Of a stretch of DNA of 64,000 bases, positions 38,786-39,760 are shown piece by piece. Position 1 is the first letter of the stretch. The number at the start of each line of letters is the position of its first letter. The translations under genes and the position numbers were made by a program. Under the pieces are notes generated by a model. That model worked only from the letters and a program-made list of their open reading frames with translations, was not told where the DNA came from and did no database searches. This stretch comes from a virus. Lineage: Duplodnaviria > Heunggongvirae > Uroviricota > Caudoviricetes. Where the stretch lies: the IMG/VR virus record IMGVR_UViG_3300045988_161728. The stretch is one strand, 5' to 3'.

Positions 38786-39760
38786 ATGAACATCCTGATC
38801 ATTGGGCGAAAATTTGCAGCCATCAGTGATGTGAAAACATATACGGAAATGTGGGCTTATAACCTGGCCTGCGCCTTTAGTGAGGCAGGGGTAACATTGC
38901 AATACCATCGTCCATATTCCCCTGGCGTCGAAAGCCCGGAGGATTATGTTGAAGCTGTGTTGACTGCTGCGACCGCATGTTCTGCGAAGGCCATTTTGGC
39001 ACCAGGATTGAGGTATTTTACTACGGTACCCAGGGAAATAGGCATGCAACTGTGTCGCCGATTCTCTGGATGGGTAGCCCAGGTATATGACGGTTCTATG
39101 CTGGATTCGGCACCAGTCGATATTACTTTTACTGTCCGCGATGATACCTGGCGGTACCTGGATAATCCCGGCAGGTTAGAGCGTCATAATCGTTTTAACA
39201 AACATGTTGGATGGGCAGCGAATCAGGAGCTGTTCCATCTGGAAACCAAAACAGACGATGTTCTGCGTATTTTTGTAGACCACGCGGCATTTGATGTTAG
39301 TGGGTTTGATCACTCCTTAAGTATCCTTATGAACCTTCAGCGCCTGACCGTTCCGTATGAGGCCAAAACGCTGACCGATGACGGATTGGTTACCATTGAG
39401 CCGGGGAATATTTCGGTAACCCCATACAGACGGACTCCGGTACCAGCAACCGAATTTGCAGCTGAATTGCGTAAGAGTGACATTTTTATCGTTACGCATC
39501 CCGAAAGCCTTGGATTAACTGTTCTTGAGGCGGCAATGTGTGGAGCGTTGATATTAACTCCGCCCGATTGCCTTCCGCCGGATCGCCTGGAGTTGGTGAA
39601 CCATATGGTTATCAAGTCGCGGATTGATTGGGATGAGGTTATTGCTCGCGTTGATCGCGTGAAAAATGCTGAAAAGGTCCAGTGTCACACCTGGTCGGCA
39701 ATTGCGGAAAAGATGCTTGAGACGTTTATCACGCAGAAACCGTCGCGCGGTAACGGATAA
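38786..39760 (+). CDS. GT-B fold glycosyltransferase-like protein
   Basis: C-terminal HPESLGLTVLEAAMCGALILTP matches the EX7E / donor-binding motif of GT1/GT4 enzymes; start at 38786 with GAGGAAAA RBS. Confidence 0.5.
   Translation: MNILIIGRKFAAISDVKTYTEMWAYNLACAFSEAGVTLQYHRPYSPGVESPEDYVEAVLTAATACSAKAILAPGLRYFTTVPREIGMQLCRRFSGWVAQVYDGSMLDSAPVDITFTVRDDTWRYLDNPGRLERHNRFNKHVGWAANQELFHLETKTDDVLRIFVDHAAFDVSGFDHSLSILMNLQRLTVPYEAKTLTDDGLVTIEPGNISVTPYRRTPVPATEFAAELRKSDIFIVTHPESLGLTVLEAAMCGALILTPPDCLPPDRLELVNHMVIKSRIDWDEVIARVDRVKNAEKVQCHTWSAIAEKMLETFITQKPSRGNG

Follow-up and report, generated by a model that had tools for sequence, protein, structure and literature searches.

The dbn gene of P1-type phage-plasmids: a predicted GT4-like protein grouped with PmgO, PmgP and PmgQ in a candidate modular sugar-transfer cassette

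What is the role of a glycosyltransferase-like gene encoded immediately downstream of the replicative helicase of a phage? The question is raised by a 64,000-nucleotide (nt) stretch of Caudoviricetes DNA (IMG/VR record IMGVR_UViG_3300045988_161728; this whole stretch is the window in what follows), on whose plus strand an open reading frame (ORF) ending at position 39760 follows the helicase gene ban. An earlier reading of the letters and their ORFs (the sequence-only reading) took its product for a lone glycosyltransferase of the GT-B type, which might glycosylate DNA as an anti-restriction measure, or else a host or phage protein. Here we identify the ORF as dbn of phage P1 and find that, away from P1-like elements, its homologues are usually encoded beside or near those of three further predicted sugar transferases, PmgO, PmgP and PmgQ. 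Both the gene and its glycosyltransferase label are already in public annotation, and there is no novelty in either; the new result is the grouping of dbn with pmgO, pmgP and pmgQ in a predicted modular sugar-transfer cassette, and it is a modest lead.

The identity of the gene follows from close similarity and shared synteny: the ban-dbn stretch is 98.7% identical at the nucleotide level to reference P1 (NC_005856, over 2,409 bases), 98.5% to P7 and 99.9% to vB_EcoM-813R1, and its flanks are as in NC_005856, namely ban, dbn and the convergent gene 5. The suggestion of the sequence-only reading that P1 lacks a gene of this kind here proved mistaken, as dbn lies exactly there in the reference. 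P1 Dbn (YP_006544), P7 Glt and RCS47 Dbn are the same gene in the same operon and position, with 96-98.5% protein identity to the window's product; within dbn they differ from it only allelically, and the ORF annotated in P7 is shorter, as it begins at an internal start. The window is a P1-type phage-plasmid. As to public labels, the P1 record notes 'function unknown, possible glycosyltransferase', P7 names the gene glt ('putative glycosyltransferase'), RCS47 has 'putative glycosyltransferase, Dbn', and the NCBI label of the 90% cluster is 'glycosyltransferase family 4 protein'; the matching PHROGs family, phrog_2518 (E 6e-232), is without a name. The sequence-only reading had itself allowed that the gene might be the conserved P1 dbn with a known but unrelated function: the identity is right, and our literature search found no paper that ties dbn to any function.

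The gene is carried by 471 PLSDB plasmids, most of them from E. coli and others from Salmonella and Klebsiella, while the GTDB representative genomes hold only two Dbn homologues, and scans of viral contigs for relatives were dominated by P1-like contigs. A median pairwise ratio of nonsynonymous to synonymous substitution rates (dN/dS) of 0.11, from 114 intact copies representing 70 alleles in the fetched P1-like loci, points to strong purifying selection. One fetched P1-like contig (L135) has a fragmented copy, and dbn likewise appears split or frameshifted in ON470617.2 (vB_EcoM-813R1) and ON470615.2, where protein identity is 80-89% and DNA identity 98-99.9%, and the 673R5 record, like 813R1, shows lower protein identity despite high DNA identity; such split copies in near-identical P1-like genomes would reflect either sequencing error or occasional gene loss.

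The GT-B fold proposed by the sequence-only reading was borne out by structure prediction. The AlphaFold model, built on 14 homologues (predicted local distance difference test score 88, predicted template modelling score 0.83), supports a two-domain arrangement of Rossmann-like domains separated by a cleft, and every one of its top Foldseek matches is to a GT-B enzyme, the best at E 2e-9 with a probability of 1.00. The assignment is made on the model and these matches, the sequence evidence by itself being thin: searches of PDB chains with the Dbn sequence and family profile gave nothing significant, the lone weak match being of Rossmann type (KtrA) to the N-terminal domain, NCBIfam gave nothing but a 14-bit match to sucrose-phosphate synthase, and Pfam Glycos_transf_1 (PF00534) aligns with amino acids (aa) 221-307 only, at E 3.5e-5 and 23.9 bits against a cut-off of 26.4 bits. 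The glycosyltransferase classification of the earlier reading accordingly holds for the motif it pointed to and falls short at the profile threshold. That motif is real: the segment HPESLGLTVLEAAMCGALILTP contains E240 (39503-39505) and E248 (39527-39529) at the E-x7-E spacing, and both glutamates are invariant in 14 close homologues and 99-100% conserved in 125 members of the wider family, which shows that the EX7E reading is correct. This conservation and the Pfam E value place the resemblance to glycosyltransferases beyond chance. The family, for which an exhaustive profile search yielded 356 representatives, further conserves H238 (codon 39497-39499), D165, H166, D175 (codon 39308-39310), G243 and G253; together with the two glutamates these are 96-100% conserved in the 125 full-length members.

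The closest folds are those of the retaining GT4/GT5 enzymes GlgM, PimB', PimA, BshA, WaaG and WaaB, at 9-14% sequence identity. Dbn stands apart from these as a short protein with a sub-threshold Pfam score and a family-specific set of invariant residues (D-H, D and H), and the basic pair expected to follow the first C-domain strand is not evident. In a low-probability hhalign alignment, R208/K209 of WaaG stand opposite V171/S172 of Dbn and the FGRKG loop opposite FDVSG, although R216 and R229 are conserved elsewhere in the family alignment. Near the position of D165-H166 GT4 enzymes usually have Gly-Arg, as part of a Gly-Arg...Lys phosphate-binding loop. The residues D165-H166, D175 and H238 may hint at an unusual mode of donor binding or an unusual donor. 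Because the WaaG loop seems unmatched and the family has its own invariant Asp-His, we call Dbn GT4-like, a GT-B outlier, rather than an established GT4 member. The protein is predicted to be soluble and acidic, with an isoelectric point of 5.6 and, on a Kyte-Doolittle scan, no stretch of transmembrane grade (maximum 19-residue mean 1.55). A role in seroconversion of the Gtr type, with integral membrane GtrA/B and a GT-C enzyme working on O-antigen in the periplasm, was rejected on account of this missing transmembrane stretch and the cytoplasmic-type GT-B fold. A role in defence was likewise set aside, as the PADLOC models match none of Dbn, PmgO, PmgP, Ppp or PmgQ at E <= 0.01.

What, then, keeps company with Dbn? 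Outside the P1 group no helicase adjoins a Dbn homologue in any of the loci examined, and the helicase adjacency is thus peculiar to P1-like plasmids. Of the tie to the helicase read from the sequence, the co-transcription with ban stands and the functional link does not; a functional pairing of Dbn with Ban was rejected because the adjacency is not kept outside P1-like elements. In every other arrangement examined, save one chromosomal glycan cluster, the Dbn homologue lies beside or near homologues of pmgO, pmgP and pmgQ. The isolated coliphage EP_H11 has a contiguous PmgO-PmgP-Dbn-PmgQ run with overlapping gene ends; PmgP adjoins Dbn in phage IME392; two lambdoid contigs (L089 and L168) show PmgO-PmgP-(189-aa GT-A-like protein)-Dbn-PmgQ just upstream of terminase; and a further contig (L006) has the order PmgP-Dbn-PmgQ-PmgO. 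On the chromosomes of Serratia plymuthica and Buttiauxella the four genes fall inside some 10-13 kb and adjoin phage lysis genes, while Citrobacter-type phage-plasmids (L005, L167, L169) have the trio as an unbroken run 5 kb away from Dbn. In a soil contig (L133), the gene next after a Dbn of only 28% identity encodes a PmgQ homologue. Contiguous cassettes with overlapping genes are found in at least three unrelated phage backbones. In P1 the cassette is split, with pmgO-pmgP-ppp-pmgQ apart from dbn; in the window these three predicted sugar transferases are encoded 6-9 kb beyond dbn on its downstream side, so that the gene is not the lone glycosyltransferase it was taken for.

In a collection of 50,697 phage records, Dbn homologues occur in 22 and PmgP homologues in 27, with PmgP present in 22 of the 22 Dbn-bearing records; among these are CM1 and RAS14, jumbo phages of Stenotrophomonas. 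Since the 22 represent only three independent lineages, this count is weaker evidence than it appears. At an identity of 49% or above there are no fewer than 328 PmgP clusters, compared with 22 for Dbn, and many prophages have the PmgO/PmgP/PmgQ trio without Dbn. Because the trio is so much more widespread, and often stands without it, Dbn is best described as an optional fourth member added to a core of three.

As for the partners, PmgO and PmgP are paralogous (hhalign 97.5%), their genes overlapping by about 100 nt, and resemble Maf flagellin glycosyltransferases and Cst sialyltransferases in fold and motif, from which they differ in being single-domain proteins of ~200 aa whose Pfam MptE-like matches fall short of the cut-off. 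PmgQ resembles GT8 enzymes (glycogenin, Skp1 galactosyltransferase, LgtC, WaaJ) in fold and motif, a class assigned from its profile alone: against PDB this finds Skp1 alpha-galactosyltransferase (E 1.5e-6), glycogenin (E 3e-3) and LgtC (E 0.13), and around the DxD motif PmgQ aligns with WaaJ (E 1.9e-4). Profiles of Dbn, PmgP and PmgO compared by hhalign with E. coli WaaG and WaaZ and with the MptE-like protein of locus L090 gave motif-level, low-probability matches only, for which reason no membership in Waa families is claimed. A literature search found nothing relevant on MptE-like proteins in phages. Between pmgP and pmgQ lies a variable slot, occupied by the metallophosphoesterase gene ppp in P1 and in the same arrangement in L186, by a methyltransferase in L164 and L176, by a Nucleotid_trans-like protein in L173 and L089, by a weak GT2-like protein in L178, and by Dbn in EP_H11, L089 and L006. 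A conserved core with swappable tailoring enzymes is what would be expected of a glycan pathway with a phage-specific product. As an observation on the wider distribution, runs of the pmgO-pmgP-ppp-pmgQ type recur in lambdoid, Pseudomonas and Alloalcanivorax prophages and in jumbo phages, often right after the capsid or portal gene.

The chromosomal exception (L090/L091/L092 and L122) comes from a low-GC organism and has a 52%-identical Dbn homologue in the absence of the PmgO/P/Q trio. In its cluster a GT4 gene and two unknown genes of ~320 aa are joined by an MptE/WaaZ_KDO_III-like gene, the Dbn homologue itself and a hexapeptide acyltransferase, with pgi adjoining; the cluster is probably a lipooligosaccharide or capsule locus. 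In a metagenome contig (L132, positions 3-4154), a 27%-identical Dbn relative is flanked by genes for a GT4 enzyme, two methyltransferases and a metallophosphoesterase, the same enzyme classes as in the variable slot of the phage cassette.

These contexts lead to a proposal which, on balance, we consider probable, if not strongly so: the dbn product helps to build a glycan together with PmgO, PmgP and PmgQ, rather than modifying DNA. The C-terminal domain of Dbn would bind a host nucleotide-sugar and the enzyme would transfer the sugar, probably with retention as in GT4 enzymes, to a glycan started or extended by PmgO, PmgP and PmgQ, such that the four enzymes together would build a short phage-specific glycan on a target other than DNA. 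As to that target, we tentatively favour, without going so far as to call it probable, a phage structural protein, most likely of the head, made in the same infection period. A virion acceptor is favoured because of the placement of the trio in head-gene modules, its late promoter, the P7 annotation and the protein-glycosylating relatives of its products. In L163, a Pseudomonas prophage, and in L176 (portal-protease-capsid-PmgO-PmgP-methyltransferase-PmgQ) the trio comes immediately after the gene for the major capsid protein; in L173 it follows the portal gene, and in both L162 and L164 it has the lysis genes on one side and terminase on the other. In P1 it is annotated behind the late promoter LPpmgL; P7 annotates its genes as hdmB-D, 'head morphogenesis'; and protein-glycosylating enzymes are among the best matches, by structure or by sequence, to PmgP and PmgQ. 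A known parallel comes from mycobacteriophages, in which glycosyltransferases encoded beside capsid genes glycosylate virions. There, too, the genes lie in or beside head modules and are dispensable for plaques; that system differs from the candidate P1-type cassette in enzyme families and hosts. The most far-reaching form of the proposal, that Dbn, PmgO, PmgP and PmgQ constitute a previously unrecognised modular glycosylation cassette of temperate and jumbo phages of Proteobacteria, using host nucleotide-sugars (possibly cytidine monophosphate-Kdo for the Maf-like pair) to decorate head proteins of the virion, is doubtful as a whole.

Several observations weigh against a joint glycan pathway aimed at the virion. 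In-frame deletions of dbn, pmgO, pmgP, pmgQ and ppp by Gonzales et al. still gave infectious virions, which plated with parental efficiency on EcoA, EcoB and EcoK strains (PMC9024508), and CRISPR interference found all five genes non-essential (PMC10695390); thus neither single deletion nor interference with dbn, pmgO, pmgP or pmgQ causes a plating defect. The gene dbn lies in an early C1-controlled operon, whereas the main promoter mapped for pmgO-Q is late. A proteomics paper and two cryo-electron microscopy papers on P1, all recent, mention no glycan, which is weak evidence as none looked for one. To these are to be added the small number of lineages behind the co-occurrence with PmgP, the presence of distant Dbn relatives in polysaccharide loci, an argument for glycolipid or polysaccharide as the acceptor, the missed CAZy GT4/Pfam Glycos_transf_1 threshold and, in an alignment of low confidence, the apparent absence of the Arg/Lys pair that in WaaG contacts the donor diphosphate. 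Because of the last two points the donor of Dbn, or even its activity, could be unusual.

The second choice of acceptor, a glycolipid or polysaccharide of the envelope, for instance the lipopolysaccharide (LPS) core, is in our estimate unlikely. In this case LPS core or another lipid-linked glycan would be the substrate of Dbn and PmgO/P/Q on the cytoplasmic side of the inner membrane, and an altered surface, for example one with the core glucose of the P1 receptor masked, could bring about superinfection exclusion or lessen the adsorption of progeny to debris; we hold this remodelling and its supposed consequences to be just as unlikely. P1 does adsorb to LPS core, and relatives of Dbn at 25-30% identity are found in polysaccharide loci with GT4, GT32, methyltransferases, an epimerase, an ABC-2 exporter and uridine diphosphate-glucose dehydrogenase. 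The 52%-identical chromosomal homologue directly follows the MptE-like/WaaZ_KDO_III match in its cluster with GT4 and hexapeptide acyltransferase near pgi; GT4-like, GT8-like and WaaZ-like proteins are also the enzyme classes of the E. coli waa core operon, and the PmgQ-WaaJ alignment points the same way. However, both operons are C1-repressed in the lysogen, so that stable lysogenic conversion is not expected, and cytoplasmic enzymes would reach newly made LPS only, a poor fit to a single lytic cycle. Moreover, the cassette is found repeatedly inside head-gene modules, no flippase or membrane protein accompanies it, Dbn itself is acidic and soluble, and hhalign gives only low probabilities for a match to WaaG or WaaZ. 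A literature search for LPS changes in P1 lysogens gave nothing relevant.

Glycosylation of DNA by Dbn beside the replication machinery, as a means of evading restriction, has in its favour the operon shared with a replicative helicase. With the phage DNA glycosyltransferases, namely T4 alpha-glucosyltransferase (1y6f) and the glycosyltransferase of phage HY126 (9ir0/9iqz), Dbn has in common that it is phage-encoded and of GT-B fold. Glycosylation of DNA is nonetheless very improbable: the helicase adjacency is absent outside the P1-like elements examined, the nearest folds are GT4/GT5 rather than DNA glycosyltransferases of the T4 AGT/BGT type, the recurrent partners are transferases of protein or glycan type, and, contrary to the anti-restriction role suggested by the sequence-only reading, the dbn deletion plates like its parent on the type I restricting EcoA, EcoB and EcoK strains. 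For P1, the DNA of which is routinely cut by restriction enzymes, no hydroxylated or hydroxymethylated base is known to be described. Known phage DNA glycosylation requires such a base, made by dedicated enzymes (PMC13326640). Improbable, if less so, is a stand-alone enzyme acting on a small molecule or host protein without PmgO/P/Q, whose co-occurrence with them would merely reflect shared 'cargo' regions of temperate phages. Small-acceptor enzymes are indeed among the best structural matches (GlgM, BshA, tetrahydrobiopterin glucosyltransferase and sucrose-phosphate synthase), dbn lies 5-6 kb from the trio in P1 and the Citrobacter-type plasmids, and the trio is far commoner than Dbn. Such an enzyme does not sit well with the overlapping genes of contiguous cassettes in unrelated backbones, with PmgP in all Dbn-bearing phage records, or with the use of the same slot elsewhere by other sugar-tailoring enzymes. 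Finally, Dbn could be a degenerate, non-catalytic GT-B protein, a scaffold or binder comparable to Asp1/Gap1, as its Pfam score, the seemingly missing Arg/Lys pair and the want of a laboratory phenotype might suggest; this we likewise give very little credence, as the EX7E glutamates, D165, H166, D175 and H238 are invariant in a family diverged to 25% identity and, along with the low dN/dS, are typical of an active site. The glycan built jointly with PmgO, PmgP and PmgQ remains the explanation we prefer.

The ORF may begin at 38762 (332 aa) or at 38786 (324 aa). The former is the start annotated in P1, where ATG and the stop codon of ban share bases in TAATG; the latter (MNILIIG) has a GAGGA Shine-Dalgarno sequence 7 nt upstream, and M(K/R)(I/L)L(I/V)IG, the N-terminus of most aligned Dbn homologues, is equivalent to it. 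Because of this site and these N-termini, 38786 is likely the true start. The operon runs tRNA-SPFH-tRNA-ban-dbn, with the operator Oban / Op72 (one perfect copy and an inverted partner) at its head and dbn as the last gene, facing the convergent baseplate gene 5. The overlap of start and stop, the strong hairpin after dbn and a terminator check that found no credible terminator between ban and dbn lead us to predict that dbn is co-transcribed with ban in a C1-repressed operon. The coordinates are collected in Table 1.

Table 1. Features of the dbn region and of the partner genes, in window coordinates
Feature	Position	Strand	Basis and remarks
dbn CDS (coding sequence)	38786..39760	+	324 aa plus stop; ORF list, 98.7% nt identity to NC_005856, start by homologue alignment
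ban, DnaB-type replicative helicase	37392..38762	+	Pfam DnaB_C E 5e-108, P1 annotation; directly upstream of dbn, same predicted operon
Divalent C1 repressor operator (Oban / Op72)	34197..34224		Consensus matches with 0 and 2 mismatches, P1 annotation
Predicted bidirectional hairpin terminator	39781..39807		RNA fold -17.6 kcal/mol, z -4.5, then UUUUCUU; between convergent dbn and gene 5
Predicted donor-site segment HPESLGLTVLEAAMCGALILTP with EX7E motif (E240, E248) and family-invariant H238	39497..39562	+	Alignments, Pfam PF00534 over aa 221-307
D165-H166 codons	39278..39283	+	100% and 99% conserved in 125 sequences; end of first strand of C-terminal domain (model secondary structure)
pmgO	45695..46357	+	MptE/Maf/sialyltransferase-like; recurrent Dbn partner
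pmgP	46255..46881	+	pmgO paralogue; recurrent Dbn partner; Maf/sialyltransferase-like fold
ppp, metallophosphoesterase	46863..47555	+	Pfam Metallophos E 9e-16; slot between pmgP and pmgQ
pmgQ	47552..48253	+	GT8-like GT-A glycosyltransferase (predicted), invariant DxD (alignment); recurrent Dbn partner

Upstream of ban the backbone differs from that of reference P1: an SPFH/Band-7 lipoprotein gene (36181-37008, plus strand, Pfam E 1e-30) stands in place of tciA/tciB/tciC. RCS47 has the same arrangement, the gene being annotated there as a putative serine protease. Three tRNA genes, Asn(GTT), Thr(TGT) and one with a CAT anticodon, lie inside the ban operon at 34882-35035 and 37036-37111; the last is called Met by ARAGORN and tRNA-Ile2 in the P1 annotation. 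Across the window the 17-bp C1 operator consensus has 11 matches with <=3 mismatches (14106, 15775, 30921, 34197/34208, 44631, 48255/48304, 50396, 60377 and 62892), where 0.25 would be expected by chance; the weak P1-annotated operator Oppp, upstream of pmgN/pmgO, has 4 mismatches and hence falls outside this set.

For the biology of P1 and its relatives, the result concerns genes which have long been listed separately as of unknown function or as 'putative morphogenetic': dbn, pmgO, pmgP and pmgQ are dispensable in the laboratory, yet dbn is under strong purifying selection, and clinical phage-plasmids carry it by the hundred. Seeing the four as one sugar-transfer module turns them into a better-framed and directly testable question. 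Were the target the virion or a receptor, the module would bear on host range, immune recognition and the engineering of P1-type vectors and phage-plasmids; and if it decorates the virion, P1 and many prophages of Gram-negative bacteria would be glycosylated viruses.

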